Virus record (IMG/VR): IMGVR_UViG_3300045988_135886
DNA: 64,000 nt
From: a virus
Strand: one strand, 5' to 3'
Below the pieces are notes generated by a model, which was given only the letters and a program-made list of their open reading frames with translations, made no database searches and was not told the DNA's origin. Both the position numbers and the translations under genes were made by a program. This document shows positions 10,882 through 64,000 of this stretch, in pieces. How positions within the stretch are numbered: the first letter of the stretch is position 1; each line of letters starts with the position of its first letter.

Positions 10882-10905
10882 AAGACTGAAAGGAAGGTGA
10901 GGCTT

Positions 10906-13809: not shown

Positions 13810-14148
13810 ATGAGAAAAATAATCGTAAAGATTGATAAAGAAAAAGCTACAGAGCTTGAAAGAGTTAATTTTGAATTAAACTTCGTAAAAGACATTGTAC
13901 AGAGAGTTATTGAATCACATCCAAGCGATTTAGAACTCATCAATGGAGATACTCTTATGTCTTACAATAAACGTGGTGCAGAATTACAGAGAAAGTATGC
14001 TGCTCTTGCAAATGAGATGGAAAAGGAATACATCCCAGAATACCTCGAAGGTCATCAGTATAGTTGGATTATTCCAAATAATTCTGATGAAATGACTATT
14101 ACTATTAAATGTAATTGTGAGATTCCAGAATTAGAGGAAATAGCATGA
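13810..14148 (+). CDS. Small acidic protein translationally coupled to the radical SAM gene (candidate maturase accessory protein)
   Basis: GAAAGGA SD. ATGA stop/start overlap with the radical SAM gene at 14145-14148. No catalytic motif. Ends '..TIKCNCEIPELEEIA'. Confidence 0.4.
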   Translation: MRKIIVKIDKEKATELERVNFELNFVKDIVQRVIESHPSDLELINGDTLMSYNKRGAELQRKYAALANEMEKEYIPEYLEGHQYSWIIPNNSDEMTITIKCNCEIPELEEIA

Positions 14149-16544
14149 AAAGGACAGAACAATATTCGGATCAGATAGCTAGACTTTATCCATCTAAGAA
14201 GGTAAAAACCGATGACGGACAAAGAATATTAACACAGAGTATCACTTTTCAAGTAACTGATGATTGTAACCTTGCATGTAGTTATTGCCTTAGTGGAGAT
14301 ACAAAAATCCGTATGGCAGATTATTCGTTAAAATCAATCAAAGATATTCAGTTGGGAGATAAAGTGTTAGGATTTGAGGAATATCCTCAAAAAGGGAAAC
14401 AGACTAAGGTAATTGTTTCAGACGTAGAGAAATTATATTGTCATGAAGCATCAACTATCGAGTTAACATTTAATGACGGACAAATTCTTAATATTACTCC
14501 TAATCATAAAATTTTAGTTCGAAGAAATTCTTATGATAATAGATATGACTATGTTGAAGCTGGTAAACTAAATATAGGCAGTGAAGTGTATTACCTCCCT
14601 ATTATTGATTCAAAATTACATATAGAAGAGCCGATACATGACATAAATTATAAAATAGGATACCTTATTGCAATGATTAAAGGTGACGGTTCATTAAAAC
14701 ATTATAATCGAAAGTCTGATGGTTGTGATGTATTCAAGTTTAGAATAGCTGTAAAAGATACGGAAATAATCGAACGTTGTAAGAAGTATCTTGATGATTT
14801 AGATATTCCGGTTTATTTGAAACCGTATAATGTATCTAAAAAATACGATATATGGAACAATGCTATTTTTGCAAATACAAGATACGTATATAATAAATTA
14901 AATCAATTAATTAGCGATAATTTCTCTCAAAATACTTCTCTTTCATATTATCAAGGATATCTTGCAGGATTTTACGATGCTGAAGGTCATATTTCAAAAG
15001 AACGTGTTATCAGAATTTGCAATACAGATATTAAGATGATTAATGAGGCTACCTTAGGATTGGATTTGTTAAAGATTCCATACATAATCGAAGTTGATGC
15101 AAAAGGAACTGTGAATAAACCATTAAAATACAATATTCGAATAACTGATAACTTAAATTCTATATCTACATATCGTTTTATCAAATCTGTTCATCCAGCA
15201 ATAAAAAGAAAATCTTTTGATAATTTCCTTAATTATTCTCCATTAAAAAAGACTAAAATTATAGATATAAAAAAAAATCCTATTAGTACTACGGTATATA
15301 ACATAGGAACTTCATCTCGTACTTATATCGCAAACACTATTGCTGTACATAATTGTTACCAAGGACATAAAGGAAAAAATCGAATGTCGTTTGAAACAGC
15401 TAAGAAATTCTTTGATTTAGTTGTATCAGGTGAAAAAGGTTTTAAATCTTATATCAATCCAGAGAAATCTCCTGGATTGGTTGTAGATTTCATTGGAGGA
15501 GAACCTTTTCTTGAGATAGAGCTTATAGATCAAATCTGTACTTATATTATGGATAAACTCATAGAGTTGGATCATCCTTGGGCCATGAAAACTATGTTCT
15601 CTATTTGTTCAAATGGTGTTTTATACAGGGACGAAAAAGTACAAGCATTTCTTCGTAAGTGGGCCAATAGATTATCTTTCTCAGTTACTATTGATGGGAA
15701 TAAAGAATTACATGATTCCTGTCGAGTATTCCCAGATGGCAGTCCAAGTTATGACATAGCTGTCGATGCTGCGTCTGATTGGATGAAACGTGGAAATCAT
15801 ATGGGAAGCAAGATCACAATTGCTCCAGGTAATATCAGCTTTCTATACGATGCTATTAAGCATATGGTCGATCTTGGATATGATGAAATCAATGCCAATT
15901 GTGTATATGAAAAGGGTTGGACACCTGTACATGCAACTGTTCTTTACGATCAAATGAAACGCATATCTGATTATTTCTTGGAACAGAATTTTGATTTTGA
16001 ACGTGATTTCTTCTGTTCCCTTTATAATGAAGATTTCTTTCATCCTAAAGATCCTGATGATTTACAAAGCTGGTGCGGAGGCGTTGGTAATTCAATGATT
16101 GCTTGCGATCCTCAAGGTCGCATATTTCCATGTATCAGATATATGGAATCTTCTCTTAATGGAGAGCAAGAACCGTACTCTATTGGTGATGTAGATAATG
16201 GTATAGGATGCACAGAATGTTATAAATGCAGAATTAATTGTATGGCAAAAATAGATAGAAGGACACAGAGTACAGATGAATGTTTCTATTGTCCTATAGC
16301 TGCAGGATGTTCTAATTGTTCTGGTTATGATTATCAAGTGAATGGTACTCCTGACTCAAAAGCTACTTATATATGTGTTATGCATAAAGCTCGTGCTCTT
16401 GGAAACCTGTATTTCTGGAATAAATATTATAGAAAAAATAATATGAATAAACGAATGAAAAACTATGTGCCAGATGAATGGGCGCTTGAGATTATTTCTG
16501 AATCAGAACTTAATATGTTGAAAGAACTTGAAAGAGAGGATTAA
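14145..16544 (+). CDS. Radical SAM / SPASM-domain enzyme (anSME/peptide-maturase-like) interrupted by an intein
   Basis: After removing the intein the cluster motif reads 'CNLACSY|CYQGH' (CX3CX2C). Also present: 'DFIGGEPFL', 'SICSNG' and a C-terminal Cys-rich SPASM-like region ('CGGVGNSMIACDPQGRIFPCIRY', 'CFYCPIAAGCSNCSG'). Confidence 0.8.
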   Translation: MKRTEQYSDQIARLYPSKKVKTDDGQRILTQSITFQVTDDCNLACSYCLSGDTKIRMADYSLKSIKDIQLGDKVLGFEEYPQKGKQTKVIVSDVEKLYCHEASTIELTFNDGQILNITPNHKILVRRNSYDNRYDYVEAGKLNIGSEVYYLPIIDSKLHIEEPIHDINYKIGYLIAMIKGDGSLKHYNRKSDGCDVFKFRIAVKDTEIIERCKKYLDDLDIPVYLKPYNVSKKYDIWNNAIFANTRYVYNKLNQLISDNFSQNTSLSYYQGYLAGFYDAEGHISKERVIRICNTDIKMINEATLGLDLLKIPYIIEVDAKGTVNKPLKYNIRITDNLNSISTYRFIKSVHPAIKRKSFDNFLNYSPLKKTKIIDIKKNPISTTVYNIGTSSRTYIANTIAVHNCYQGHKGKNRMSFETAKKFFDLVVSGEKGFKSYINPEKSPGLVVDFIGGEPFLEIELIDQICTYIMDKLIELDHPWAMKTMFSICSNGVLYRDEKVQAFLRKWANRLSFSVTIDGNKELHDSCRVFPDGSPSYDIAVDAASDWMKRGNHMGSKITIAPGNISFLYDAIKHMVDLGYDEINANCVYEKGWTPVHATVLYDQMKRISDYFLEQNFDFERDFFCSLYNEDFFHPKDPDDLQSWCGGVGNSMIACDPQGRIFPCIRYMESSLNGEQEPYSIGDVDNGIGCTECYKCRINCMAKIDRRTQSTDECFYCPIAAGCSNCSGYDYQVNGTPDSKATYICVMHKARALGNLYFWNKYYRKNNMNKRMKNYVPDEWALEIISESELNMLKELERED
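14286..15353 (+). mobile_element. Intein (356 aa) with LAGLIDADG homing-endonuclease domain
   Basis: Begins 'CLSGDTKIRMADYS' (block A) and ends 'AVHN' followed by a +1 Cys. Two LAGLIDADG motifs are present ('IGYLIAMIKGDGSL', 'YLAGFYDAEGHI'). It is in frame with no stop codons. Confidence 0.85.
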
Positions 16545-45333: not shown

Positions 45334-45891
45334 TTATAAACACGTAGCTCCTCCTGTTATTTCTTCTAAAGTTCTAGGAGTATAATTCAGCAGCATTGCT
45401 CCGACATTATACATTTTACATGGTGTATTATATAGATTTTCCATTTCATACTTTGTTCTTTGCATCATATTATTTTCAAAACCTGTATGTACATGTCCAT
45501 ATAAATGATACCAACCATAGTAATGATTCTTAAAACAAGGAATCGGATAATGACAGAGAATAATACTCTCTTTTGGATTAAGGTATAGTTCTTTATAATC
45601 AACTATTTCTACAAACAAATTCTGTAAATCTTTGTTTTTCAGAATCTTATTATCATGATTTCCTTTTATTAAATGAATCCTACCATTTAGCTGGCTATAA
45701 TACTCTAATGTTTTAGTTGATCCATACCAACTAATATCTCCCAAAAGATAAACATCATCATCTAAGCCAACTACTGAATTCCAATTATTTTTAATAGTTT
45801 CATCGTTCTCTTCTATTGTCTTAAATGGTCTAGCATCGAATGCCAATGCATTTGTGTGACCAATATGTAAGTCTGAAATATAATAATTCAT
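45334..45891 (-). CDS. Calcineurin-like metallophosphoesterase
   Basis: The 'ISDLHIGH', 'LGDISW', 'GNHD' and 'GHVH' motif series. Confidence 0.7.
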   Translation of the reverse strand: MNYYISDLHIGHTNALAFDARPFKTIEENDETIKNNWNSVVGLDDDVYLLGDISWYGSTKTLEYYSQLNGRIHLIKGNHDNKILKNKDLQNLFVEIVDYKELYLNPKESIILCHYPIPCFKNHYYGWYHLYGHVHTGFENNMMQRTKYEMENLYNTPCKMYNVGAMLLNYTPRTLEEITGGATCL

Positions 45892-50474: not shown

Positions 50475-50897
50475 TTAAACTTCATTTAATTCATCTCTCA
50501 CTCTCATAAGTATCTTCCCAAGCCTATTTTCACCAACTCCATCTACAGTTCCCCAAATAGTGTCTCCCCAAGTATTACCCTCTTCCAAATATTCATCTCC
50601 TGTAGCAAGTAATTTTTCCTTAAGGTCTGGATTCTGAGTGAATTTAGCCAGTACGATTTCATACATTACTTTATCTTTCACTTCTTCCCAATCTGATCTC
50701 AAATCAATCTTTCTACCTGCTGCCTTTGCCTCTGATGGGCTAGCTTGAGAAAATAACTGGAATTTTAGTCTACGATTTTTTGTTTTCTGTGCTTGAAAAG
50801 CTGCTTCATTATTTGTATAGTCCCATCCGTTATAACTTACCGGTGCCATATAAAAGTTACTTAAAAAGTAATAATCTCCAGTAAAACTATTAATCAT
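50475..50897 (-). CDS. NADAR (YbiA/DUF1768) family protein
   Basis: 'YFLSNFYMAPVSYNGWDYTNNEAAFQAQKT' and '..GNTWGDTIWG' match the NADAR signature. The ATG at 50897 lies 7 nt after AAGGAAGGA. Confidence 0.7.
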   Translation of the reverse strand: MINSFTGDYYFLSNFYMAPVSYNGWDYTNNEAAFQAQKTKNRRLKFQLFSQASPSEAKAAGRKIDLRSDWEEVKDKVMYEIVLAKFTQNPDLKEKLLATGDEYLEEGNTWGDTIWGTVDGVGENRLGKILMRVRDELNEV

Positions 50898-50910
50898 TCT
50901 TTTTCCTTCC

Positions 50911-51093
50911 TTAATAATCACTACAAGTTACTGTCAAACTTACAAATCCATCATTTTGCTCAAAAGATGTAATAAGCTCATCTTTTACCAATTCTTCTAC
51001 TATATCTCTGTCAGTTATTTTTGTTCCAATTAATTCAGGATCAGTCAAGTTGTATTCAGCTTCTACAGTGATCACTCTTTTTGTTGGTATCAA
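50911..51093 (-). CDS. Small hypothetical protein (start unclear)
   Basis: The track start is TTG. The frame is open much further upstream but has no ATG/GTG/TTG there. Confidence 0.25.
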   Translation of the reverse strand: MIPTKRVITVEAEYNLTDPELIGTKITDRDIVEELVKDELITSFEQNDGFVSLTVTCSDY

Positions 51094-51326: not shown

Positions 51327-52076
51327 TTATTTGCCTTTCTTTGCTTTCAGTTCCTGCAGCTTTTTATCAATTTCATCATCTTTCATTTTCTTATCCAGAC
51401 GCTGTTTCTGTACAGTAGTAGAACTTTCATAAGCGATCCTAGCTCCATCAGCAGCTTCTTTCTGCTTTTTAACTCCGTCACGTACTTTCTCTAACATCTT
51501 TTCCTCTTCGCTGGAACATACTCCTGGCGTTACATTAAAAGCTTTTGATGCCTGAGCAGTCTCCAAAGTTAAAACAGCACTTTCTTTTTCTGCTTTTAAA
51601 TCATTAAGTTGCTGCTGTAATACTTCTACTTTTTCTTTCTGTACATCAGCATTTTCTTTCCATTCTTTTAATGTATTTTTAATAAAATCAATCTTATCAT
51701 TCAGCTCCTGTTGTTCTTTTAAGTAGACTTTTGCCGCTTCGTCATCTCCTCGATCCACACAAGCATTTACATTTACATCTGCTTTCATGGCATCTTTCTT
51801 CAAATGGAACAAATCATCTTCATAATTAGAAATCTTACCAAGCATCTGCTGATATCTTACATTTTCCTGCTGAAGTTCATCTTCTTTCTTCTCAATAGCG
51901 GCATTATAATATGCTTTAGCTCCTTCAGGTGTAGACGCATCTTTCTGAATCGCTTCGTTTGCCGTGCCAGATGCTCTTATCCTTACTCTTTTTCCAATTT
52001 TACTATTAAAAAAGAAACAAAGTCCTACGAGTACTAAAATAACAATTATAATAATTGCTCCAGCTGTAATATTCAT
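51327..52076 (-). CDS. PspA/IM30-like coiled-coil protein with an N-terminal TM helix
   Basis: N-terminal 'AGAIIIIVILVLVGLCFFF', then a long heptad-rich helix with PspA-like segments ('..CVDRGDDEAAKVYLKEQQELNDKI..', '..QQQLNDLKAEKESAVLTLETAQASKAF'). Confidence 0.45.
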   Translation of the reverse strand: MNITAGAIIIIVILVLVGLCFFFNSKIGKRVRIRASGTANEAIQKDASTPEGAKAYYNAAIEKKEDELQQENVRYQQMLGKISNYEDDLFHLKKDAMKADVNVNACVDRGDDEAAKVYLKEQQELNDKIDFIKNTLKEWKENADVQKEKVEVLQQQLNDLKAEKESAVLTLETAQASKAFNVTPGVCSSEEEKMLEKVRDGVKKQKEAADGARIAYESSTTVQKQRLDKKMKDDEIDKKLQELKAKKGK

Positions 52077-52714
52077 TAGTCTCTCCCCTCATCAATATCA
52101 AGCCCAAAGTTTTTAAACAGTTCTGTCATACCTCCTACATAACCGGAACCTAATGCCTGGAATTTGAATCCATCTCCGTAACGGTATAATTTACCCATTT
52201 CTACTGCATTCAATTTTTCAAAGTTTTCATTCTCAGACAGATCATATTCATACTTATCACCATCTGGATTGTCGTAATCACAAATTGTCATAATTGCATT
52301 GGAGACCATTCCAAAATTCTGCATACGCTGTAAGGCCCTAAAAATTGTTAAGCAGATAGTAAATTCTGTTTTATCTTTCGGGAAAGTATCAGCATGCACA
52401 ATGAAATATTCGTCATAATGCTTTCCATTGAAAATCATTCCCTGAGAATCATCACCAGTTTTATTGTCTCCTGAATAGTCTACCCAAGGATATGCAGAAC
52501 CATCTTCATAGGTTTTATAGTTTACTAAATCTTCTGGATACACTACTTTACGACTTGAATCTGTTAAAAATCCATTGATATCAAAGTCAATGTCTGCTTC
52601 ACCAGCATAACGGTTCTGATCCCAATTGACTCCAATAAAGAAATTCTTAATGCCTGTACCATCTTCTTTTACCATACTAATTTTCTGATTTTTGCTCATG
52701 TTGATTACTGCCAT
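52076..52714 (-). CDS. TerD-family (tellurium-resistance/stress, Ca2+-binding fold) protein
   Basis: 'FFIGVNWD', 'DIDFDINGFL' and 'SGDNKTGDDSQG' correspond to the TerD signature (..GLGWD.., ..DLD.., ..GDN.TG.G.GD). Confidence 0.75.
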   Translation of the reverse strand: MAVINMSKNQKISMVKEDGTGIKNFFIGVNWDQNRYAGEADIDFDINGFLTDSSRKVVYPEDLVNYKTYEDGSAYPWVDYSGDNKTGDDSQGMIFNGKHYDEYFIVHADTFPKDKTEFTICLTIFRALQRMQNFGMVSNAIMTICDYDNPDGDKYEYDLSENENFEKLNAVEMGKLYRYGDGFKFQALGSGYVGGMTELFKNFGLDIDEGRD

Positions 52715-52731
52715 ATTTCTTTATCTCCTTT

Positions 52732-53499
52732 TTATTTATTATTCAGCCAGTCTTTATACTGACGAAGAATCTCTGTATATAACTGTTCATCAGACATTTT
52801 ATTCATGTCTTTTACTGCTGTAAAACCAGTGTTATCATGTTTTCTACCTTTCATATCATCAAGAGATTTTAAATAGTCAAAATCTTCATCTCCAATTCCT
52901 ATGAACTGCACGAAGATGTTGTACTCTGAAAGCTCTTTAATAACTGCATTGGTGGCAAAAGTATCACTGTTCTCACCATCTGTAATAAAAATGATAAATG
53001 CTGGAATCTCACTTGGCTCAATATCTTTATAATATGTAACCATTTCTTTCAATACAGGAGCATAATTAGTACCACCCATATACATATGAGCTTTTTTCAT
53101 AACATTTTTAACATAACTACTATAATTATCAGCGTTAGCAGCTTTTAAGCGCTCTGCTCCATTTGAGAACAGCCAACTCTCAAGTTCTCCATTATCGTCA
53201 AATCTTAGAGCAATAGGCAACAAACGAGAAATGGTTTCCTGTACAGATCCATTATCATACAGCCAATCCATACTTCCTGAATAATCCATTGCAAGAGCTA
53301 CTCTAGCCGTATGTTTTGTCATATCAATCTTGCTTCCCTTAGACATATCAATAAGTACTTTGCCAAGATTTTCATTGTGCTTAGACATATCAATTGTCTG
53401 TAACTTTTCTTCATATACAGGTTGCTGAGTTACAGCAGAAGATAACTCTACTGCTGCTTCCTCATCTTTTTTTCCGAATAATTTTCCCAAAAATCCCAT
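52732..53499 (-). CDS. vWA-domain protein of the TerF-C-terminal/TerY type
   Basis: MIDAS motif 'ALAMDYSGSM', 'GGTNYAPVL' and 'AFIIFITDGEN'. Adjacent to TerD. Confidence 0.65.
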   Translation of the reverse strand: MGFLGKLFGKKDEEAAVELSSAVTQQPVYEEKLQTIDMSKHNENLGKVLIDMSKGSKIDMTKHTARVALAMDYSGSMDWLYDNGSVQETISRLLPIALRFDDNGELESWLFSNGAERLKAANADNYSSYVKNVMKKAHMYMGGTNYAPVLKEMVTYYKDIEPSEIPAFIIFITDGENSDTFATNAVIKELSEYNIFVQFIGIGDEDFDYLKSLDDMKGRKHDNTGFTAVKDMNKMSDEQLYTEILRQYKDWLNNK

Positions 53500-53500
53500 T

Positions 53501-56122
53501 TTAGTTACTTCCTTTCTTACAAATTGCTTTTCTAATCCAATCTACAGGCACAACCATAAATGCTGTCACTAAGACTACAATCCACTGTTTAGCATCCATT
53601 GGAGTTGTCTGTACTAGATTTCCTACAAAGTTACACAAAACTACAGTCATTGCAAAAATACCCAATGCGATATACACAAATAATTTGTTATTTTTAATTC
53701 CTTTGAAAAGATTCATACTATCTGTTCTAATAGTGAATCCATTAAATACTGCCATTAGACACAATAAAGCGAATCTCGCTGTCATAGCCGAAAGTTTTGT
53801 TGTAAACATATTTCCAACTGGACCAAATGTAATTACACCAAATAAAGCAATAAATACAATTGAACTTAATGCAATTCTCCCTTTCGCTCCACGGATAAAT
53901 AATCCGGATCCTTTCATGATAGGCTCTTCATTCATATATTCCTCTTTTGGCGGTTCTCCACCAAAGCTTAATGAGTTAAGTGAATCCATGATGATATTTA
54001 CAATAAGGATCTGAACTGCTGCTAATAGAGCAGAGCCACCAGAAATAATTGGAAATACCATACTTAAGATCAACAACGAAATATTGATAGGTAGCTGGAA
54101 TTCAAGGAACATCATAATGTTATGCATAAATGTTCTACCAAGTTCGACTGCCTTTACCACACTTGCAAAATTATTGTCTGTCAAAACAATATCTGCTGCT
54201 TCTTTTGCTACATCAGATCCGTCTTGCATTCCAAAGCCTACATCTGCTTTCTTTAGTGCAGGAGCATCGTTCACACCGTCTCCGGTCATTGCCACAGACA
54301 TTCCAATTTCTTGCGCTAATGTTACAAGACGAAGCTTCGTATTCGGTGAGCATCTGGAAATTACTCTTAACTGTGGAATAATTTCTTTTACTTTTACATC
54401 TGACATTGCCTCAAACTCATCATTGGTAACTGCTAAGTCTCCAGGCTTATAAATGCCAGCTTCCATAGCAACAGCCTTAGCAGTCTCCATACAGTCACCA
54501 GTAATTTCAATTACCTGAATTCCAGCTTTATGAGCAATTTTTACTGCTTCTGGAACTTCATTCCTAACCGGGTCAACAACTCCAATGACTCCAAGGAGAT
54601 TCATTTCATCGGGGAGACCATCATCAGTTTTATCTGAGATAGTCAATGCAATACATCTCATTGCCTTCTCTGTCAATCCCTTAATATGGCTCTTTAAAGC
54701 TTTTCTTTTTTCTTCTGTCAGCTCAGTTGCAATGCCATCATTATCAAGATAAAATTTACACTTCTCAATTAATTTCTCTGGTGCGCCTTTATAAACAGTA
54801 AAATCATTTGCTCCATTATTTAAAGTAACTGCAGAGAATTTATTTTCACTACTAAATGGAACACGTTTTTTCATGATAGCTTTATTCTGTATTTTTTGTG
54901 CATCTTCAGGAGAAAGCATATCAAGCACTGCTCGATCAATTGAATTGCCACCAGTGATATTCCCATTAGAATCAAACACTGCACTATTATTCATACAAAT
55001 GTTTAAATCAATTAGCTCGTTGAGCGGACTTTCCTTATTAAAAATATCCTGACAGTTACCGTTAATCATAACTGTAGAAGTCATTTCACCTGTTGTGAGA
55101 GTTCCTGTCTTATCCGTACAAATTAAATTAACATATGCCAATTCAGGAATTTTACCAGTATTCTTCGCAAGAATATTGAATTTTTCCATTGTCGATACAT
55201 TCTGTTTAGTTACAAGTTTTACAATGAGTGGCAGACCTTCCGGTACAGCCGCAACAATAATTGTTAATGCATTTGAGATATTCTGTGCTACTTTCTGAAT
55301 ATTTTCAAGAATGTTTCCTGAGAAATACTGACTTAAACTTCCAGCATTTAAGATACCTGTAATTGTCATAATTACAAATGCTAATACTGCCGCAATTGTT
55401 CCCCATTTTGAAATAAAATCACACAAATGATCCAGAGCAATATCAAGAGCTGTCTTAGGAGGCTCTAAAGTCTGCATTTTGACAAGAGTATCACCGTTAA
55501 CTGTATTAACACCAACATCTGTAACAATCATTTTTCCTTCACCAGACATAATAACTGTTCCTGCAAAGAGCGAACACTGATCCGTATATGCAGCAGTAGA
55601 TGTTGTTTTAACATGCTTATAATTAGCACTAGGAATTTTTCTACATTCTTTTGTCTCTCCATTGATAGCGGCATTATTAACAGAAATTTCTCCTTCAACA
55701 ATAAAACCATCTGCAAAAATCTCTTGTCCAGTTCTCAATAAAACTAAATCACCTACTACCAGATCATCTTTATTAATTGTCTGTACGCTTCCATCTCGAA
55801 CAACATCACAATATCTAACTGCCGTTTTTGCTCTTAACTCTGCTGCAGATTTCTGTATTCCTAGACCTGTCTTAACAGCAATTTCAGTAACAATAGCTAA
55901 AACTACTATAATCATTACAGGTTCAGAAAGAGCCATTACTCCCATAGCTCCTAGAACTAACTGGAATAAAGCAATTATTATTAGAATCATAGTAATTGGC
56001 TCAGTTAATGCTTCCTTAGCAAAATGATACCATTTTTTCAATTCAGGTTCCGGAAGCTTATTACTTCCATATGTAGTCCTACTAACCCCTACTTCGCTAC
56101 TTTTTAATCCATTAAAATTCAT
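53501..56122 (-). CDS. P-type cation-transporting ATPase (type IIA, Ca2+-ATPase-like)
   Basis: 'ICTDKTGTLT' (phosphorylation site), 'PEGLPLIV' (the TM4 motif of Ca2+ pumps), 'TGDGVNDAPALKKADVG', and an N-terminal cation-ATPase-N-like segment. Confidence 0.8.
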   Translation of the reverse strand: MNFNGLKSSEVGVSRTTYGSNKLPEPELKKWYHFAKEALTEPITMILIIIALFQLVLGAMGVMALSEPVMIIVVLAIVTEIAVKTGLGIQKSAAELRAKTAVRYCDVVRDGSVQTINKDDLVVGDLVLLRTGQEIFADGFIVEGEISVNNAAINGETKECRKIPSANYKHVKTTSTAAYTDQCSLFAGTVIMSGEGKMIVTDVGVNTVNGDTLVKMQTLEPPKTALDIALDHLCDFISKWGTIAAVLAFVIMTITGILNAGSLSQYFSGNILENIQKVAQNISNALTIIVAAVPEGLPLIVKLVTKQNVSTMEKFNILAKNTGKIPELAYVNLICTDKTGTLTTGEMTSTVMINGNCQDIFNKESPLNELIDLNICMNNSAVFDSNGNITGGNSIDRAVLDMLSPEDAQKIQNKAIMKKRVPFSSENKFSAVTLNNGANDFTVYKGAPEKLIEKCKFYLDNDGIATELTEEKRKALKSHIKGLTEKAMRCIALTISDKTDDGLPDEMNLLGVIGVVDPVRNEVPEAVKIAHKAGIQVIEITGDCMETAKAVAMEAGIYKPGDLAVTNDEFEAMSDVKVKEIIPQLRVISRCSPNTKLRLVTLAQEIGMSVAMTGDGVNDAPALKKADVGFGMQDGSDVAKEAADIVLTDNNFASVVKAVELGRTFMHNIMMFLEFQLPINISLLILSMVFPIISGGSALLAAVQILIVNIIMDSLNSLSFGGEPPKEEYMNEEPIMKGSGLFIRGAKGRIALSSIVFIALFGVITFGPVGNMFTTKLSAMTARFALLCLMAVFNGFTIRTDSMNLFKGIKNNKLFVYIALGIFAMTVVLCNFVGNLVQTTPMDAKQWIVVLVTAFMVVPVDWIRKAICKKGSN

Positions 56123-57646: not shown

Positions 57647-58030
57647 TCAGATAATCTGTAAGTTTTCATCACCAATAAGCCATGCAGAATCTAAAATAAA
57701 ATTTTCATATGGATCACCATTGTCATTCCAGAACTCATCCGATCCAACCTCCCAATCGCCCAATGTTCCAGCATTAAAGTTACCGTATAAATAATCTGCC
57801 ACATATTCTAAAAACGCATCTGCAGCCTTATCATAATCTTCTTTTCTTATTAACTCTTCTACATCCGGCTCAAGATCAATCCATTTATGCTGTTCAATCA
57901 AAAAAGATTTAGCGTTGTCTCTTACTTTCAGCAGTGAGTTTTTAATGTCTGTCAATGTTGCATCTTTCTTTTTTGCAATGATATAACTTGAAGACGAACT
58001 ATTAGTAACAAATCCTCTTCTTATTTTCAT
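57647..58030 (-). CDS. 'GFVTNSSSSS' N-terminal-motif protein, paralogue A
   Basis: Begins 'MKIRRGFVTNSSSSSYIIAKKK'. The acidic/aromatic C-terminal half has diverged from the neighbouring paralogue. Confidence 0.45.
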   Translation of the reverse strand: MKIRRGFVTNSSSSSYIIAKKKDATLTDIKNSLLKVRDNAKSFLIEQHKWIDLEPDVEELIRKEDYDKAADAFLEYVADYLYGNFNAGTLGDWEVGSDEFWNDNGDPYENFILDSAWLIGDENLQII

Positions 58031-58425
58031 TAACCATCTCTCCCTTCTCCTTCAGCAACTTCTATATCAGCAAATCCATTTACTTCCGTAATAGCATCTA
58101 TTGCTTCATTCATAGAGAAATCATAATCATATACAGCATCACCCCATTCATCATAATAAGCATCGTTCCTGTCCTCAATTACGATATATTCTCCATCAGG
58201 GTGCTTTTCTAAAATGTCATCAACTCCATAAATGACCGCTCCGCACCAACTAGCACCAAGCTCACCGGACCAGTTTCTTTCATCATTTACACCAGTGACA
58301 TCTAATACATCAAGATTGAACTGATCAATTATCTTCTGAGCTTTTTCTTTGTCAGCAATCCTTGCAAAGCAAATAATGAAACTGCTAGAGCTTGAATTAG
58401 TAACAAATCCTTTCCGTATTTTCAT
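58030..58425 (-). CDS. 'GFVTNSSSSS' N-terminal-motif protein, paralogue B
   Basis: Begins 'MKIRKGFVTNSSSSSFIICFARIAD'. 1-nt overlap with paralogue A. Confidence 0.45.
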   Translation of the reverse strand: MKIRKGFVTNSSSSSFIICFARIADKEKAQKIIDQFNLDVLDVTGVNDERNWSGELGASWCGAVIYGVDDILEKHPDGEYIVIEDRNDAYYDEWGDAVYDYDFSMNEAIDAITEVNGFADIEVAEGEGRDG

Positions 58426-58627: not shown

Positions 58628-59776
58628 TTACATGTCCTCCATTGAATAAATTACTCTTTCTAAACTTCTTTTTGATTTGAAACACTTCTTAAGTAAACAC
58701 CACATAATGGCTTTTTCAGTATCATCTTCGTCTTCCCAATCATTTAAGACTACAGAAGTCTGTGTTCCATCTTTGAATCCTACAGTAGTTCTAATTTTCC
58801 CTGTAGCAATATCTTTTGTTCTTCCTACAAATGAAATATCATCTTTAGACAATGTTTTATAAACACGTTTATCAAAATCATCTTTAGATATAATGTATAC
58901 ATCAACGCCTAAAGCCTCTTTAATTTGACGTTCACAGCTCCTAAACTCTTTATCGAGTGCATGCTTATGATTAATAGTTTCTTGAGCCTTCTCTAAAGCT
59001 ACAGCAATATCTTCTGGTGAGCAACAATATGTCATATTATTATCCTCCTTGTAATTGAAATACGGCATTGGTTTCATTTTAAACTTATTTTTTGTATGTA
59101 AACGATCAATCCGTCTTTTAATTTCCGGATCATCGCAAATACCTGTACGAATATATCTATCTAATACTGCATAGGTAAATCCGAAGTTATCTTCATCTGA
59201 TTTACCGCATAACCCATCTGATGGTGTTTTCTCTACATATTTTTTAGGTAATCCTAAGTAATAACCGATTCTTTTTACTTCACTCTTTGTGAACTGTGCC
59301 AATGGAGCAAAGTCTCCTGCTGAGTCACCATATCTAGTGGAGTATCCGATGTAATCCTCACTAAGGTTACATGTATTAACCACTCTTCCATTGTGTGACT
59401 GCGATACCCCGTATAGAGTGGCCATTCTTAGTCTAGGAGCGAGATTAATTAATGTCTGATCTGTTACATTAAATGCAGCATCAATTTGATCAATAATATC
59501 ATCATAAGCTGATCCAATATTAATAGTAAGATAATCAATGTTTAATACATGCTGGCAAATATCATAAGCCACACAAATATCATCCTGTTTATAATTTGGC
59601 ATAATTACTCCAAGAACCTTGTCAGCTCCAATAGCTTCTACACATAACTCAGCAGCCACTAAAGAATCAACACCACCGGAGATACCTACTATAAAATTAC
59701 ATCCTGGGCCGTTCTCTTCTCTCCAATCTCTAATCCACTGAATACAATCATTTGTTGCTTTTTCTACATTAAACAT
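58628..59776 (-). CDS. nadE: NH3-dependent NAD+ synthetase (NadE-like) fused in frame to a ~135-aa C-terminal domain
   Basis: PP-loop 'GISGGVDS', 'APRLRMATLYG' and 'TPSDGL' match NadE. An internal AAGGAGG + ATG (59035) precedes the extra C-terminal domain. Confidence 0.7.
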   Translation of the reverse strand: MFNVEKATNDCIQWIRDWREENGPGCNFIVGISGGVDSLVAAELCVEAIGADKVLGVIMPNYKQDDICVAYDICQHVLNIDYLTINIGSAYDDIIDQIDAAFNVTDQTLINLAPRLRMATLYGVSQSHNGRVVNTCNLSEDYIGYSTRYGDSAGDFAPLAQFTKSEVKRIGYYLGLPKKYVEKTPSDGLCGKSDEDNFGFTYAVLDRYIRTGICDDPEIKRRIDRLHTKNKFKMKPMPYFNYKEDNNMTYCCSPEDIAVALEKAQETINHKHALDKEFRSCERQIKEALGVDVYIISKDDFDKRVYKTLSKDDISFVGRTKDIATGKIRTTVGFKDGTQTSVVLNDWEDEDDTEKAIMWCLLKKCFKSKRSLERVIYSMEDM

Positions 59777-60269
59777 TCTGCTCCTCCAATTTCCACAATT
59801 CTACTTTAAAACTACTTAATTCTTCTTCTATAATCTTATAAACCACTTCCCAGTCTGCTCCTCCTCTTCCGCAGCCTATTTTGTATGGGAGTGCAATGGT
59901 TGTCTTATGAGGCCTGTTATCAGCATCAAACCAATAAACAGGTATTTGTTGTTGAATGAAATTTAATCCTTCTCGAAAAGCTTTAACATCAGTATATTGT
60001 TTCCCATCATATTCGTATTTATCTTGTGCAAATAAGGATAATATTCCTTGATTTTTCCTTCTGATAAAGTATTCGTCATATGTTCCAAGAAGTAATTCTG
60101 GATTAAACTCACGTAATTTACAGACGTTTCTATAATGTATATAAATACCTTCGTCATAATCTCTTAATGCTTTAGCAACTCCAGTATTCATTTTTCCTTG
60201 GCAATTAACTTGATGAATTATATAGTCGGTCTGCGCATCTACAATGTTACCTTCAATAATTTTAATCAT
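59769..60269 (-). CDS. Macro-domain protein (ADP-ribose binding/hydrolase fold)
   Basis: From ATG 60269: 'MIKIIEGNIVDAQTDYIIHQVNCQGKMNTGVAKAL' and '..LPYKIGCGRGGADW' are typical macro-domain segments. Confidence 0.65.
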   Translation of the reverse strand: MIKIIEGNIVDAQTDYIIHQVNCQGKMNTGVAKALRDYDEGIYIHYRNVCKLREFNPELLLGTYDEYFIRRKNQGILSLFAQDKYEYDGKQYTDVKAFREGLNFIQQQIPVYWFDADNRPHKTTIALPYKIGCGRGGADWEVVYKIIEEELSSFKVELWKLEEQNV

Positions 60270-60279
60270 AAATCTTTTC

Positions 60280-60687
60280 CTATAAATCCTGAAATGTAAA
60301 CTTCTCGCCACAGGAGCAAATCACTTCTCCAATAGTTCCTATTGATGTTGGTGTAAAGCACCATGTAAGAGAACCGCCTATGCAACCATGTCCCATTGCT
60401 CTCTGTTTAGAAGTTTTCAGACCATGTTTCTCAGCATCATGTTTTAATTCCCACTCTCTGATTTTCTCTTGTTCTTTTTCTGAAATTGGAAATCCTCTAT
60501 ATAAATCGTCTTTTGCTTCTTTTAACTCAGCTTCCATTCTTTGCATTTCAGAATCTTTATAATGCTCATCTTTGAGCTTCTTGTTTTCTTCTTCTAAGTA
60601 TTTAATTCGTTTTTCATAAGTGTCTACTTTATCAACAATCCCCTGACAAAGATCTGAAACTGAATCAGTAAAATATGTACTACTCAT
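60280..60687 (-). CDS. Coiled-coil protein with a C-terminal Cys/Gly motif
   Basis: An N-terminal coiled coil. The C-terminal 'GHGCIGGSLTWCFTPTSIGTIGEVICSCGEKFTF' is unassigned. Confidence 0.35.
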   Translation of the reverse strand: MSSTYFTDSVSDLCQGIVDKVDTYEKRIKYLEEENKKLKDEHYKDSEMQRMEAELKEAKDDLYRGFPISEKEQEKIREWELKHDAEKHGLKTSKQRAMGHGCIGGSLTWCFTPTSIGTIGEVICSCGEKFTFQDL

Positions 60688-60704
60688 TTTTTATACCTCC
60701 ATAT

Positions 60705-61178
60705 CTACTCCATAAATGATGAAACATGTACGGTTACAAAATCACTATGTGCACGAATATAATCCAAAGTTTTAACTGTATCTTCTACAATTGCAATCTG
60801 AGATGGCTTAAGTCCGAGCTTTTGTTGCAGCGTTTGAAGCACAGTAAGTTTTTCTGTCTTTTCTAAAGTGAAATAGATATTATCATCTGGCAGATCATAA
60901 TTGTCTTTTATAAAAGCTCTTTTACCAGGAATTTCATTTAAAGGACTCTTTGAACAGGTATATACTTTATTCACGCCTTTATTCTGAATAAACTCCTGCA
61001 TTAATTTGATCGGACGCACATCTTTATACGGATTCTCACCGGAAGCTACAAGTCTGTCCCATTCATCGTCAGTCATACTATGACTTAATTCAGAAAACTC
61101 ATACGGAGCAAGTACTCCATCTACATCCATTACTACAATCACATCATCTTTTAATAAATAATCTGTAATTTTACTCAT
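60705..61178 (-). CDS. HAD-superfamily phosphatase / 5'(3')-nucleotidase-like
   Basis: The 'VVMDVDGVLA' DxDG motif I at the N-terminus. The size (157 aa) fits a small cap-less HAD or NT5C-like enzyme. Confidence 0.5.
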   Translation of the reverse strand: MSKITDYLLKDDVIVVMDVDGVLAPYEFSELSHSMTDDEWDRLVASGENPYKDVRPIKLMQEFIQNKGVNKVYTCSKSPLNEIPGKRAFIKDNYDLPDDNIYFTLEKTEKLTVLQTLQQKLGLKPSQIAIVEDTVKTLDYIRAHSDFVTVHVSSFME

Positions 61179-62646
61179 CTTTGTTTCTTCCGTTTAATCT
61201 GTCTCTGATTTCTTTAAATATTTCTGTATGATATATTTCACCGTCTTTAAATACAGTTTTTAATGCCCCATCATAAACAAAGCTGTCATATCCATCTCTG
61301 CACCTTAATTCTCCATTTTCATCGTAATATACATGACAACATCCTTTATGAGATTTCTTTAAATGGCTTACATCTGTCTTTGGATCTTTGTAAATCATAA
61401 TCGGTTGTCCGTTAACTTCTCCAAATGTAGCTTTCATAGCAATGCCGAACATATCTCTGGTTACAACGACCATACGTCCATCAGGTTCTACAACTGCCGA
61501 GAAACAAAAAGCCCCAACTCCAAATACAATGTTGTTTGCAGCGAATCCTTTCTTCTCAAGTTCTTCCCATACCTTTTTTACATTGTTAAGAGTACAGCCA
61601 TCACCATAGATAATTCCAATATGAGGGTCCAGTACTTTGTAACCTTTGCTATTTACTGATCCTTTAAATGTATTCCAGAGTTTTTCGATAGTCTTAACTG
61701 AAATCTCTACCATATCACCAGAATCCGGACGAACCAAGAGCTTACCATTGTGCTGCATAATTTCTTTTTTGCAAGCTGGAAGAATATTGTCAATCATGTT
61801 CCAGTAATCATATGTATCAGATACCATGCTGAAAGATGCATTCGGATATAATTCTGTAAGTAGTCTTTTCACAAATGTAATTTCGTCTCCGTCCACAGCA
61901 TAATTTGAAGCCATGACCGCATGTTCGGTAGAAATCGCACCAATTCCAATATGACTCACGCTACAGTCATTGAAATAATATTTGTCCAAATAATCAATTG
62001 CCGGGATCGTACTTGTCTTATCAAAGGATAATAGCCAAGCAACGGAGCATCTCTCTGCTTCTTCCATACAGGACATTCCACGCATTCCAAAGTCTGAGCA
62101 GGCCATTTCAGGTCTTAAAATGTCGTCGCAGGTCTTTTTATAGTAGAAATTTGCCAGTTCTCTGTACATATGTCCAATTGTTGCATGAGCACACGGCTTC
62201 CAAAGCTCAACCTGCAGAATACACTCAATCCACTGCACAACCCATGCAAAATCTGGATGTGTATTCGTGATTTCAATGCATGGCACTCCCATAGGCACTA
62301 ATGTACCTTCCGGCAATGCACGGATCTGAATCGGAAGATACCCTAATTCGTGAAGTTTAAGGATTGGAGAAATATCGTAATTTCCTTCTCCTAACTGAAT
62401 GTCCATACTAATTGTATAAAGTTCTTGAACTTCATCAGTGCTTAATTTAAAGAAATCTCTTTTAAAATATGTAATAAGATATTCTTTAATAAAAGCCTGC
62501 AGTCCGAAGAAAACCATATGATCCTGCTCCTTTAACATTGATCTTCTCGGAGTCCAATAAGAGACTAACTTCGTCAATCCTCTCGGAAACATATTGTGGT
62601 GTACTTGTTTGTAAGTATCGCTTAACAGAATTGCTAAGGTATCCAT
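61171..62646 (-). CDS. Nicotinamide phosphoribosyltransferase family protein (NAMPT/NadV-like; could be a NARP1 Namat)
   Basis: The size (491 aa) and 'LLSDTYKQVHHNMFP', 'FGMRGMS', 'SDTYDYW', 'VRPDSGD' and 'IIYGDG' follow the NAMPT pattern. Confidence 0.7.
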   Translation of the reverse strand: MDTLAILLSDTYKQVHHNMFPRGLTKLVSYWTPRRSMLKEQDHMVFFGLQAFIKEYLITYFKRDFFKLSTDEVQELYTISMDIQLGEGNYDISPILKLHELGYLPIQIRALPEGTLVPMGVPCIEITNTHPDFAWVVQWIECILQVELWKPCAHATIGHMYRELANFYYKKTCDDILRPEMACSDFGMRGMSCMEEAERCSVAWLLSFDKTSTIPAIDYLDKYYFNDCSVSHIGIGAISTEHAVMASNYAVDGDEITFVKRLLTELYPNASFSMVSDTYDYWNMIDNILPACKKEIMQHNGKLLVRPDSGDMVEISVKTIEKLWNTFKGSVNSKGYKVLDPHIGIIYGDGCTLNNVKKVWEELEKKGFAANNIVFGVGAFCFSAVVEPDGRMVVVTRDMFGIAMKATFGEVNGQPIMIYKDPKTDVSHLKKSHKGCCHVYYDENGELRCRDGYDSFVYDGALKTVFKDGEIYHTEIFKEIRDRLNGRNKDE

Positions 62647-63035
62647 TATTTTTTATCCTCCTCTTTGTCGTTTACAACTTTGTCAATCTGGTCAGTAATA
62701 TAATCAACTACATCTTTGCCGGTTTTCCCAATCGCTTGTATATTATCTGTAGTTACATTATCTAATACAATCATTGTATACATTGTGTCTTTCGATGGAA
62801 TTACTGTAAAAAGTAAACTACTAATACAAAACCAAATAATCGATTTCTTTAAATACTTTTTGCATTTAATAATTAAATTATCATCTATATTATATCCCAT
62901 AAAACATGAAAACCGAATAATTAACAAAACCACTATTGCACATCCAAGTGAAAACAATACAACACTAAGCAATACATTTAAATTATCAAACAAATTAATC
63001 AAATAAATCAACCAAGGGTTAATAATTGGTTTCAT
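62646..63035 (-). CDS. Membrane protein
   Basis: Three hydrophobic helices. 1-nt overlap with the NAMPT-like start. Confidence 0.45.
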   Translation of the reverse strand: MKPIINPWLIYLINLFDNLNVLLSVVLFSLGCAIVVLLIIRFSCFMGYNIDDNLIIKCKKYLKKSIIWFCISSLLFTVIPSKDTMYTMIVLDNVTTDNIQAIGKTGKDVVDYITDQIDKVVNDKEEDKK

Positions 63036-63154
63036 AGTTTCTCATCTCCTTTATAATTTTATCAACTTCATATTCTCTTAAAATATCATCCACATCTTCT
63101 GTATGAGAATATCTATTAATGTATCTATATGTAGCAATTTCATAATCCATTGAT

Positions 63155-63361
63155 TCAATCTTCCCATTTGTATGTTTCTGTACAGTAATCTGGTAATTCT
63201 CTTAATGGACATAATTTAGGAATCGTTGAATGTTCTTTCCTTTTTAAAGAATTAATGTATTTATTTAATAATTGGCAATAATATCCATACGTTTCTAATT
63301 CTGAAAATGGGCATTCGTCACATGAATTAGGTTCTTCTATAATCAACATAACTTTACTCAT
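63155..63361 (-). CDS. Small Cys-containing protein
   Basis: 'CDECPF....YYCQL....CPL' suggests a possible Zn-binding protein. Confidence 0.35.
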   Translation of the reverse strand: MSKVMLIIEEPNSCDECPFSELETYGYYCQLLNKYINSLKRKEHSTIPKLCPLRELPDYCTETYKWED

Positions 63362-63413
63362 TATTGCTTTCTCCTGTAATTTCTCTTAAGCAAATACTTA
63401 TATCATCTAACCT

Positions 63414-64000
63414 TTATCTAAACCTCTCAATCAGTTCAATCTTAGGACTTTCCAGATTTGTCAGAATCGTATCTGTCGTATAAATCTTCTCAATCAATCC
63501 ATTGTTTTTCAAAAGCTCACCGTCATAAATCGTGTTCTCGCAATGAGTTACATAGAGATAAATCTTATTCACTCCTGCTTCTTTTAGTTTCTTAGCACTA
63601 TAATAAAAAGTACCGCCTTTGCTGCAGATATCATCTACAATAAGGATATCTTTACCTGGTAACTGATCAATTTCACCTGATAAATCTAAACCTTTAATCT
63701 CTCCAGTTTCCCAATCTCTATTCTTAATACCAAAAGTATATGGAAGATGTACTGCTGAAGAATATCGCTTCATGGATCCCGCATCCGGATAAAACATCAT
63801 AAGATTATTACTCGCAATCTTCTTAACAGTATCCTCAATCATTCGATTCGGGGATTCTACATGTACTTTATTAAATAATGCGGCAGATACATCAGAATGC
63901 GGATCTAAAACTTCTACTCTTCCAAAATGTAATGAATTAATAGTCTGAGCAAAATATTTTAAAGTAAATAATTCGTTCTCATGTTTAACTCGGTCCATAC
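63414..64000 (-). CDS. Ribose-phosphate pyrophosphokinase (Prs)-like protein, C-terminal part; 5' end probably beyond the window
   Basis: 'VEVLDPHSD' and the PRPP-loop 'ILIVDDICSKGGTF' match the second half of Prs-family enzymes. The segment seen aligns only from about residue 100 of a typical Prs. Confidence 0.6.
   Translation of the reverse strand, partial: MDRVKHENELFTLKYFAQTINSLHFGRVEVLDPHSDVSAALFNKVHVESPNRMIEDTVKKIASNNLMMFYPDAGSMKRYSSAVHLPYTFGIKNRDWETGEIKGLDLSGEIDQLPGKDILIVDDICSKGGTFYYSAKKLKEAGVNKIYLYVTHCENTIYDGELLKNNGLIEKIYTTDTILTNLESPKIELIERFR

Follow-up and report, generated by a model that had tools for sequence, protein, structure and literature searches.

We analysed a stretch of 64,000 nucleotides (nt) from the IMG/VR virus record IMGVR_UViG_3300045988_135886, hereafter the window, which ends with a cluster of genes encoding, among others, a Prs-like pyrophosphokinase and a NAMPT-family transferase (58628-64000). 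We propose that this locus is an NAD+ reconstitution module derived from NARP1 (NAD+ reconstitution pathway 1), and that it would run via nicotinate and nicotinic acid adenine dinucleotide (NaAD) instead of directly from nicotinamide. We give this reading a probability of about 0.55. NAD+ depletion is among the commonest antiviral strategies of bacteria, and NARP1 is the main known metabolic countermeasure. A preliminary description of the window had suggested that the two genes form a NARP1-type pair and that the transferase joins nicotinamide to ADP-ribose pyrophosphate (ADPR-PP). Sequence comparison supports the first suggestion: the closest phage relatives of both proteins are the validated Adps and Namat (SPbetaL1, FADO and ICP1), the Prs-like protein scores under the Prs cutoffs and there is no nicotinamide mononucleotide adenylyltransferase (NMNAT) nearby, which argues against a classical Prs and NAMPT pair and against NARP2. 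The second suggestion probably does not hold, since the Asp that binds the amide is replaced in the transferase (Ser212) and a second pocket position is changed as well (Ser239). The system is probably not NARP1 as published, but a derivative routed through nicotinate and NaAD.

The pyrophosphokinase and the transferase

NARP1 is made of Adps and Namat (Osterman et al. 2024; structures in PMC12774641 and PMC13586617). The gene content, the sequence-based family assignments, the pocket substitutions, the covariation and the gene co-occurrence that we report are direct observations. The best annotated phage match of the Prs-like protein is SPbetaL1 Adps (41.5% identity by tblastn, E = 1e-45; 40% in a MAFFT alignment). 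Its identity is 34.7% to FADO Adps, 30% to ICP1 Adps (an enzyme of published structure) and 22% to Prs of E. coli, the one cellular outgroup of the comparison. It matches PHROG 619 (7.7e-67) and falls under the cutoff of every NCBIfam Prs model (86.5 bits vs 113). The published features of Adps are K185 (ICP1 numbering), R87, H121, D161, D212 and D213, a remodelled PP loop with an aromatic lid, and the lack of helices alpha11-alpha12. A search of the Protein Data Bank (PDB) returned Prs entries only (E of at least 2e-13) and there was no Adps structure among the entries searched. Hence, we checked these features against the published description and an alignment with ICP1. The protein keeps K165 (equivalent to the catalytic K185), R73, H107, D145, D195 and D196, has the PP loop (IC-SKGGT) and the aromatic lid (F204/Y206), and with its 267 amino acids (aa) is without the C-terminal helices of Prs (alpha11-alpha12). 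Among the adenine contacts, F18 is replaced by Tyr14 and F92 by Lys78, the latter position being variable also among validated Adps. The Adps of SPbetaL1 and FADO are experimentally validated NARP1 enzymes; that of SPbetaL1 forms ADPR-PP and gave no product in a Prs-type control reaction. We assign the protein to the Adps clade, and not to cellular Prs, as a predicted ADP-ribose (ADPR) pyrophosphokinase.

The transferase matches NF006629 with 458 bits (cutoff 405 bits). It scores 372 bits against SPbetaL1 Namat (PDB 9w5x), 188 against human NAMPT and 150 against 7yqo, the next non-mammalian, bacterial-type PDB entry after Namat, which we take to be probably the Xanthomonas Nampt. It is approximately 40% identical to Bacillus-phage Namat and approximately 28% to the T4-like NARP2 Nampt (Va3/KP27).

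The nicotinamide pocket of Namat consists of F189, R192, D215, A242, R306, D13' and Y15', where D215 hydrogen-bonds the amide of nicotinamide and the change D215A causes an 8-fold drop in activity (PMC12774641). Its equivalent in human NAMPT, D219, sets the substrate specificity of that enzyme, and the change D219S is listed in a table as one that switches the affinity for substrates (PMC7096376, PMC4919578). The transferase of the window keeps the catalytic core (D10, Y12, F186, R189, H242, R306 and D308). This includes the pocket residues F186, R189, R306, D10 and Y12, but not the equivalents of D215 and A242. The changes from Namat to the window protein in and around the pocket are D215 to S212, A242 to S239, H187 to S184 and G213 to K210. 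The adenine clamp is also modified. The published selectivity-clamp motif of the clamp helix is GS-X-phi-X-phi-X-phi-TRD with aromatic X, complemented by the stacking residue R40 in the SCL loop. The window protein has neither: it reads G-A-F-C-F-S-A (G378-A379-F380, with F392 retained as F380), followed by a 10-aa insertion and V-V-T-R-D (T396-R397-D398), and has Met37 at the position of R40. Of the active-site comparisons that had been proposed in the preliminary description, the one with Adps finds its features present, and the one with Namat finds the nicotinamide pocket and the clamp altered. We also noticed that some Namat homologues (P0166, P0181, P0204, P0205, P0218 and P0243) carry an insertion of approximately 285 aa that starts with Cys directly after the Ala of the conserved catalytic motif ATEH(S) and is probably an intein.

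Covariation and phylogeny of the transferases

We searched 1.84 billion representative sequences and kept the best 150 (representatives at 50% identity), to which we added 11 references, giving 161 sequences. Columns 215 and 242 covary without exception. The pair is D/A in 103 sequences, A/S in 29, S/S in 19, E/A in two, and V/S, A/T, A/G and D/G in one each. There is not a single case of Asp with Ser, or of Ala or Ser with Ala. The other three sequences are incomplete or outlying, with K/D or with gaps in one or both of the columns. Among the references, MT835544 and Phass-1 have Ala and Ser, while the six NARP1 Namat and the two NARP2 Nampt have Asp and Ala. We refer to the two kinds of transferase as the non-Asp subtype, which includes the window protein, and the Asp subtype. 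The next most discriminating columns are 187 (where His is almost invariant in the Asp type), 304, 271, 240, 239, 213 and 182-185, and the most discriminating columns mainly flank the pocket residues F189, D215, A242 and R306 in the sequence. Most of the non-Asp subfamily has a 9-10-residue insertion in the clamp helix with the first aromatic (GSF) kept, and most of the clade retains GSF...[F/Y]TRD and the Arg of R40. The branch of the window is more divergent than the rest of the subfamily (GAF...VVTRD and Met at R40).

We built a neighbour-joining tree without columns 215 and 242, using the NARP2 Nampt as outgroup. It placed 44 of the 45 non-Asp sequences in one pure clade, nested among Adps-associated Namat, the window protein included. 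The remaining sequence, from Phass-1, lies outside. Strict monophyly of all 45 was recovered in 12 of 30 bootstraps, because Phass-1 shifts its position. Its placement outside the clade may reflect either an independently acquired pocket change or a long-branch artefact. Phass-1 is a recoded (code 15) gut phage that encodes a nicotinamidase, Adps, an Ala-type transferase and NadE (L013, 90899-109756). The non-Asp clade has a small sister group (P0186 and P0258, at loci L237 and L248) with Glu at the amide-binding position and Ala at 242; Adps is present in these loci, with no NadE or PncA nearby. The clusters of the transferase family in gut metagenomes have hundreds to thousands of member sequences.

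Co-occurrence with NadE and nicotinamidase

To quantify the gene neighbourhoods, we scanned the open reading frames (ORFs) of 230 loci with small hidden Markov models. Of these, 226 came from IMG/VR and included flanks of up to 10 kb; the other four were L002, L008, L013 and L016. We counted co-occurrences in those loci whose flanks reach 6 kb or more on each side:

Non-Asp loci (n = 110): Adps 110, NadE 109, PncA-like 110, macro 73, NadM-like NMNAT 19
Asp loci (n = 48): Adps 48, NadE 0, PncA-like 0, macro 7, NadM-like NMNAT 1

Adps adjoins the transferase in all 158 of these loci. When transferases are dereplicated at 70% identity, NadE is found in 10 and PncA in 11 of the 11 non-Asp clusters, and neither occurs in the 40 Asp clusters. 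At 60% identity, the figures are seven and eight of the eight non-Asp clusters, against none of the 14 Asp clusters. The partner genes are all on the strand of the transferase, and NadE is downstream in every case. NadE had been described as a loose addition to the pair; instead, NadE and the nicotinamidase are obligate partners of the non-Asp subtype. The Asp/Lys/Cys triad and the DxH...H metal site that mark nicotinamidases are both present in the PncA-like protein, which thus looks active. In GenBank phages, Adps-like proteins occur in 1524 records, NadE in 39 and PncA-like proteins in nine. Among the examined records with Adps, the three occur together only in MT835544 and Phass-1, both from the human gut. 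The contig MT835544 encodes Adps, an Ala-type transferase, macro, NadE and PncA back to back. This gut-only occurrence may explain why surveys of cultured phages missed the association.

A sister lineage (L002/L004/L005/L006/L009 and many IMG/VR loci; e.g. L002:11958-17066) shares its Adps and non-Asp transferase with the window (82-100% identical). Further genes of this lineage encode Tpt1/KptA, YAcAr, NADAR and adenylosuccinate synthetase, with NADAR inside the NAD cluster, and its NadE is shorter (253 aa, approximately 56% identical to that of the window). In the window, the NadE domain covers aa 1-238 of 382 and is followed by a lineage-specific C-terminal extension of 142 aa (58628-59056), found in the lineage without the NadM-like NMNAT. 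The extension has no family match, its relatives are all at least 75% identical, and its AlphaFold2 (AF2) model (pLDDT 62) was too poor for a fold search. In the sister phages, an NMNAT of the NadM type (GRFQTFHKGH) adjoins NadE. The presence of an NMNAT in phages with Adps was unexpected, because the 2024 survey found no phage with both NARP1 and NARP2, the Nmnat of NARP2 being a partner of KVP40-clade Nampt (Osterman et al. 2024).

We found no GxFxPxHxGH motif, and no tblastn match to the NadM-like protein of the sister phages, in the window or in the 9.4 kb beyond its edge (see below). Hence, the absence of an NMNAT noted in the preliminary description of the window also extends to the sequence past nt 64000, which it had proposed to examine, and neither an NMNAT nor NadD is present within 73 kb. 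The sole HxGH match (45334-45891) was rejected as an NMNAT, as its context is DLHIGH; presumably it encodes a metallophosphoesterase-like protein.

Proposed pathway and alternatives

We infer the substrates, the products and the role in counter-defence alike from the sequences and their neighbourhoods. In the route that we propose, the PncA-like nicotinamidase would convert the nicotinamide released by NADase defences into nicotinate, and the Adps-like enzyme would make ADPR-PP from ADPR and ATP. The Namat-like transferase (Ser212, Ser239) would then join nicotinate and ADPR-PP, yielding NaAD and pyrophosphate. Here, the loss of the Asp would remove the charge repulsion with the carboxylate of nicotinate, and Ser239 could offer a hydrogen-bond donor. 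Finally, the phage NadE would amidate NaAD to NAD+ at the expense of ATP. The macro protein might provide an extra source of ADPR by dephosphorylating ADPR-1''-phosphate, as in NARP1-AP, and the HAD phosphatase probably trims another phosphorylated precursor or by-product. Such a route needs no adenylyltransferase, which fits the finding of none in 73 kb. One may speculate on what the phage would gain: nicotinate is charged and would stay in the cell while nicotinamide diffuses out, the ATP-driven step of NadE would make the pathway irreversible, and the route could suit hosts that salvage through nicotinate. Phages offer a precedent for a deamidated route: in Bacillus phage G, the genes for PncA, PncB, NadD and NadE share a similar neighbourhood. 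More broadly, we put at about even the odds that this is a fourth phage route of NAD+ reconstitution, a 'deamidated NARP1' made of nicotinamidase, Adps, a nicotinate-specific transferase and NadE with no adenylyltransferase, and that it occurs widely among the large temperate phages of Clostridia from the human gut.

Several points weigh against this proposal. The use of nicotinate is deduced from two residues and from gene neighbours. The main caveat is shared ancestry: non-Asp transferases are essentially one clade (44/45), so the co-occurrence may reflect one ancestral gene cluster instead of repeated selection, and the association may amount to few independent events. Nearly all examples come from gut samples, which confounds lineage and habitat with the trait. 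The adenine clamp departs from its published form (Ala379 for Ser, the 10-aa insertion, no aromatic at Y396 and Met37 for R40), and therefore the use of ADPR-PP by the window transferase is not assured. Human NAMPT D219A was reported to be inactive, yet Ala is the commonest residue at that position in the non-Asp clade. The NadM-type NMNAT beside NadE in sister phages suggests that mononucleotide intermediates can also flow, and the phage nicotinamidase could equally feed the Preiss-Handler pathway of the host.

The system might instead be a canonical NARP1 or NARP1-AP, making NAD+ directly from nicotinamide and ADPR-PP. The Ser or Ala in the pocket would then be neutral or a matter of tuning, and PncA and NadE would form a parallel branch that uses the Preiss-Handler enzymes of the host. 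Both core proteins are nearest to validated NARP1 enzymes, the catalytic core of the transferase is intact and a macro domain is present, as in NARP1-AP. Furthermore, human D219S is tabulated only as an affinity switch, so Ser212 need not exclude nicotinamide. We nevertheless find this explanation unlikely. It leaves unaccounted for both the perfect covariation of columns 215 and 242 and the presence of NadE and PncA in 109-110 of 110 non-Asp loci vs none of 48 Asp loci. Moreover, a phage nicotinamidase would compete for substrate with a Namat that uses nicotinamide, and Namat D215A is 8-fold less active with nicotinamide.

A second explanation is a salvage of the Preiss-Handler type based on phosphoribosyl pyrophosphate (PRPP). 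The Prs-like enzyme would produce PRPP, the transferase would make nicotinate mononucleotide, a host NadD or a NadM-like enzyme would adenylate it and the phage NadE would finish the pathway. Namat does keep PRPP-dependent activity in vitro, the adenine clamp of the window protein is degenerate, a NadM-type adenylyltransferase adjoins NadE in sister phages, and Bacillus phage G demonstrates that phages can encode PncA-PncB-NadD-NadE. We regard it as quite improbable, however, given that the Prs-like protein is 40% identical to SPbetaL1 Adps (without product in the Prs-type reaction) vs 22% to E. coli Prs. The protein also has the PP loop and aromatic lid of Adps, lacks the Prs C-terminus and scores under all Prs family cutoffs. 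Adps stands beside the transferase in 110 of 110 non-Asp loci, most of the clade keeps GSF...[F/Y]TRD and R40, and an adenylyltransferase is found in only 19 of the 110.

The least probable alternative is an auxiliary metabolic module supplying NAD+ to the phage's own NAD-consuming enzymes (DNA ligase, and Tpt1 in sister phages) instead of serving counter-defence: an NAD-dependent DNA ligase does lie 7 kb upstream in L008, sister phages hold Tpt1/KptA and NADAR inside the cluster, and NadE occurs in marine cyanophages and pelagiphages that have no NARP genes, but pyrophosphorylation of ADPR is sensible only when ADPR accumulates, i.e. after NAD+ cleavage, and NARP1 homologues have been shown to defeat Thoeris, DSR1/2, SIR2-HerA and SEFIR. 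It is important to highlight that this alternative concerns the purpose of the module and not its chemistry, and is compatible with all the chemistries proposed.

Comparison with known NAD+ pathways of phages

NARP1, NARP1-AP, NARP2 and NARP3 have already been published. As in NARP1, the window has an Adps-clade pyrophosphokinase upstream of a Namat-clade transferase on one strand, with the Namat homologue within ten genes of Adps. The catalytic Lys, acceptor residues, PP loop and aromatic lid of Adps are shared, as are the core residues of the transferase (Asp and Tyr of the partner protomer, Phe, Arg, His, Arg and Asp). The genes are phage-encoded, with no NMNAT in 73 kb, and the replication genes are SPbeta-like, SPbetaL1 being the type NARP1 phage. 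The system differs from NARP1 by Ser212 in place of the amide-binding Asp and Ser239 in place of A242 (H187 and G213 being also changed), by an SCH clamp with a 10-aa insertion and without the second aromatic, by Met at R40 and by the three small ORFs between the two genes. In addition, nicotinamidase and NadE are obligate neighbours here, whereas published NARP1 operons are without them (0/48 Asp-type loci).

NARP1-AP consists of Adps, the macro phosphatase Adpp and Namat, where the macro protein dephosphorylates ADPR-1''-phosphate; macro was reported in 15% of NARP1 phages overall (Osterman et al. 2026 preprint). In our loci, it is present in 66% of the non-Asp vs 15% of the Asp type. The macro protein of the window has no Pfam match, but it matches the NCBIfam DarG-type macro (6.9e-13) and PHROG 335, annotated as phosphatase (2.7e-35), and its best phage matches are annotated as Appr-1-p processing or Poa1p-like. 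It aligns over its full length with gp172 of Vibrio phage Pontus (26% identity, E = 3e-9), which is encoded between Adps and Namat. It is this sequence, and not the Adpp of Vibrio phage Gary, that supports the likeness. The Poa1p-like macro gene of the window is in the same operon-like cluster, but three genes downstream of the transferase instead of between the core genes, and just outside the distance of two genes that those authors used. We consider it a candidate counterpart of the NARP1-associated phosphatase of NARP1-AP, with a predicted activity on ADPR-1''-phosphate.

NARP2 (KVP40-type Nampt and Nmnat) also has an enzyme of the NAMPT family, and sister phages of the window carry a NadM-type NMNAT. 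However, the Nampt of Va3/KP27 is approximately 28% identical to our transferase and serves as outgroup in the tree, and the window has Adps and, with its extension, no NMNAT in 73 kb. For NARP3 (a PnuC-like transporter and a NadR-like bifunctional enzyme), we found no HxGH adenylyltransferase in 73 kb, and made no search aimed at PnuC.

The proposed route shares with the Preiss-Handler pathway of phage G a nicotinamidase as first step and NadE as last step, as well as the intermediates nicotinate and NaAD; Tpt1 is encoded nearby in both phage G and the sister phages. In place of the PncB and NadD steps, the proposed route would use Adps and a transferase acting on ADPR-PP. The latter is of the NAMPT family and not of the PncB family, and no NadD was found (73 kb). 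The cluster of Bacillus phage G (L257, 200123-207372) encodes a Nudix protein, a PncA-like protein, a true PncB-family nicotinate phosphoribosyltransferase, KptA/Tpt1, NadD and NadE. Judged by its gene content, this cultured jumbo phage has the whole Preiss-Handler pathway. We rejected phage G as a cultured example of the system of the window, as its gp277 is a true PncB and the cluster has no Adps. No study of this cluster came up in our literature searches, none of which targeted phage G.

The NARP papers that we examined mention neither nicotinamidase nor NadE, and nicotinate appears in the NARP3 paper only as background on salvage. In the full-text literature, with subscription journals outside its scope, we came across no publication that connects NARP1, Adps or Namat to nicotinamidase, NadE or nicotinate. 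A nicotinate-routed variant of NARP1 has probably not yet been described.

Organisation of the locus and of the phage

According to the ORF map and profile searches, every gene of 58628-64000 is on the minus strand, and neighbouring genes overlap slightly or are a short distance apart:

58628-59776, minus strand: NadE-like protein, 382 aa (PF02540 1.5e-47, TIGR00552 7.8e-48, SGGxDS loop)
59769-60269, minus strand: macro-domain protein, 166 aa from the ATG (the ORF reaches 60311), Poa1p/Adpp-like candidate ADPR-1''-phosphate phosphatase
60280-60687, minus strand: 135-aa protein with a coiled coil and a Cys-rich C-terminal tail, no significant family
60705-61178, minus strand: capless HAD-superfamily phosphatase, 157 aa
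61171-62646, minus strand: Namat-like transferase of the non-Asp subtype, 491 aa (NF006629 458 bits), predicted nicotinate user
62646-63035, minus strand: small membrane protein, 129 aa (PHROG 3878, 6.1e-17, a family without assigned function)
63019-63150, minus strand: small ORF, 43 aa
63155-63361, minus strand: small Cys-rich ORF, 68 aa
63414-64000, minus strand: Adps-like ADPR pyrophosphokinase (partial), C-terminal 194-195 of 267 aa in the window (TIGR01251 4.4e-22)
50475-50921, minus strand: NADAR-domain protein, 148 aa (PF08719 1.5e-29), distal on the same strand

Most of the earlier annotation stands. The NadE-like, macro, HAD, NAMPT-family and Prs-like genes are where they had been placed on the minus strand, all with strong profile matches save the HAD, which relies on its motifs and structural model. 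NADAR is indeed encoded 10 kb away. We found three small ORFs between the pair, not two. The order is thus the Adps-like gene, the ORFs of 68, 43 and 129 aa, and the Namat-like gene, whose start codon is overlapped by the 129-aa ORF by one base. An identical 68-aa protein occurs in 23 contigs, always flanked by the Adps-like and Namat-like genes, and the content of this slot differs among related phages. The 135-aa protein is kept across this phage lineage and found in most related loci, and relatives of the macro gene start at the ATG at 60269.

The HAD protein has weak profile matches (TIGR01509 6.6e-06, under cutoff), but its motifs (D18-x-D20, K110 and E132-D133) are invariant in 26 homologues. 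A search with its AF2 model (pLDDT 92.4) using Foldseek gave as top matches the capless HAD phosphatases MDP-1 (2wm8, 1u7p), AphA and KDO8P phosphatase; these are generic enzymes of the class and point to no specific substrate. The gene is translationally coupled to that of the transferase by an overlap of 8 nt. In-frame fusions of transferase and HAD (646 aa) are abundant, for example L007:10716-12656 and protein clusters P0002-P0012 (2406 members in P0012). Both the overlap and the fusions argue for a shared pathway, suggesting that the HAD protein acts in that of the transferase.

As had been recognised, the Prs-like gene runs off the edge of the window. We completed it from contig L008, which matches the final 8 kb of the window with 100% identity and runs 9.4 kb past its edge. 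The complete gene (L008:9145-9948, equivalent to window 63414-64217) encodes 267 aa. Upstream of it are two small ORFs and then the isochorismatase-family (PncA-like) gene (L008:7717-8250), 1.1 kb outside the window edge. Further upstream are an AAA protein, a kinase/HD protein and the NAD-dependent DNA ligase. Exact copies of the 491-aa transferase occur in 220 indexed blocks of the collection, on contigs of up to 308 kb, and we examined 25 contigs among them. A megablast of the 6-kb region gave no match in GenBank phages, and therefore there is no close cultured relative among them. A scan of 57-64 kb for promoters and terminators did not exceed shuffled expectation (37 vs 32 and 3 vs 2.6, respectively).

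The window comes from a large phage, with genes for tail fibres, ribonucleotide reductase, a RecD2-like helicase and a PolIII-alpha-like polymerase. Related prophages are found in genomes of Ruminococcus, Lachnospiraceae, Acutalibacteraceae and Clostridium, an integrase adjoins host genes at the end of some relatives, and the replication genes are similar to those of SPbeta-like phages. The phage is a large SPbeta-like temperate phage of gut Clostridia.

Other regions of the window have further features of interest. Two adjacent paralogous small proteins that begin with MKIR(R/K)GFVTNSSSSS and match no family (57647-58030 and 58030-58425) are kept downstream of NadE in related phages. A radical-SAM protein (14145-16544) is split by an intein with a LAGLIDADG homing endonuclease (Hint 1.5e-09, LAGLIDADG_3 9.8e-09). 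Large proteins near the tail-fibre genes (8788-10590 and 10897-13347) match the ALK/LTK glycine-rich domain (PF12810, E of approximately 1e-95), which is known chiefly from animal receptor kinases. Finally, a P-type cation ATPase of 873 aa is followed on the phage strand by vWA/TerF-like, TerD and PspA-like genes (51327-56122; Pfam calls taken from identical genes in L001), a module of ion or membrane stress that is unusual in a phage.

Implications for NAD+-based conflicts

If the proposed route is correct, a sizeable and abundant branch of NARP1 relies on a different chemistry, in which one enzymatic reaction would be new and amidation, driven by ATP, would be an indispensable step. This would change the annotation of NARP systems, for which the two diagnostic columns and the NadE/PncA neighbours would provide a simple rule, and it would explain the occurrence of nicotinamidase and NadE in phages. 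Such phages would be predicted to be insensitive to the loss of nicotinamide, but sensitive to the inhibition of NadE. The NAD+ arms race would then extend to the gut Firmicutes, where almost nothing has been tested.

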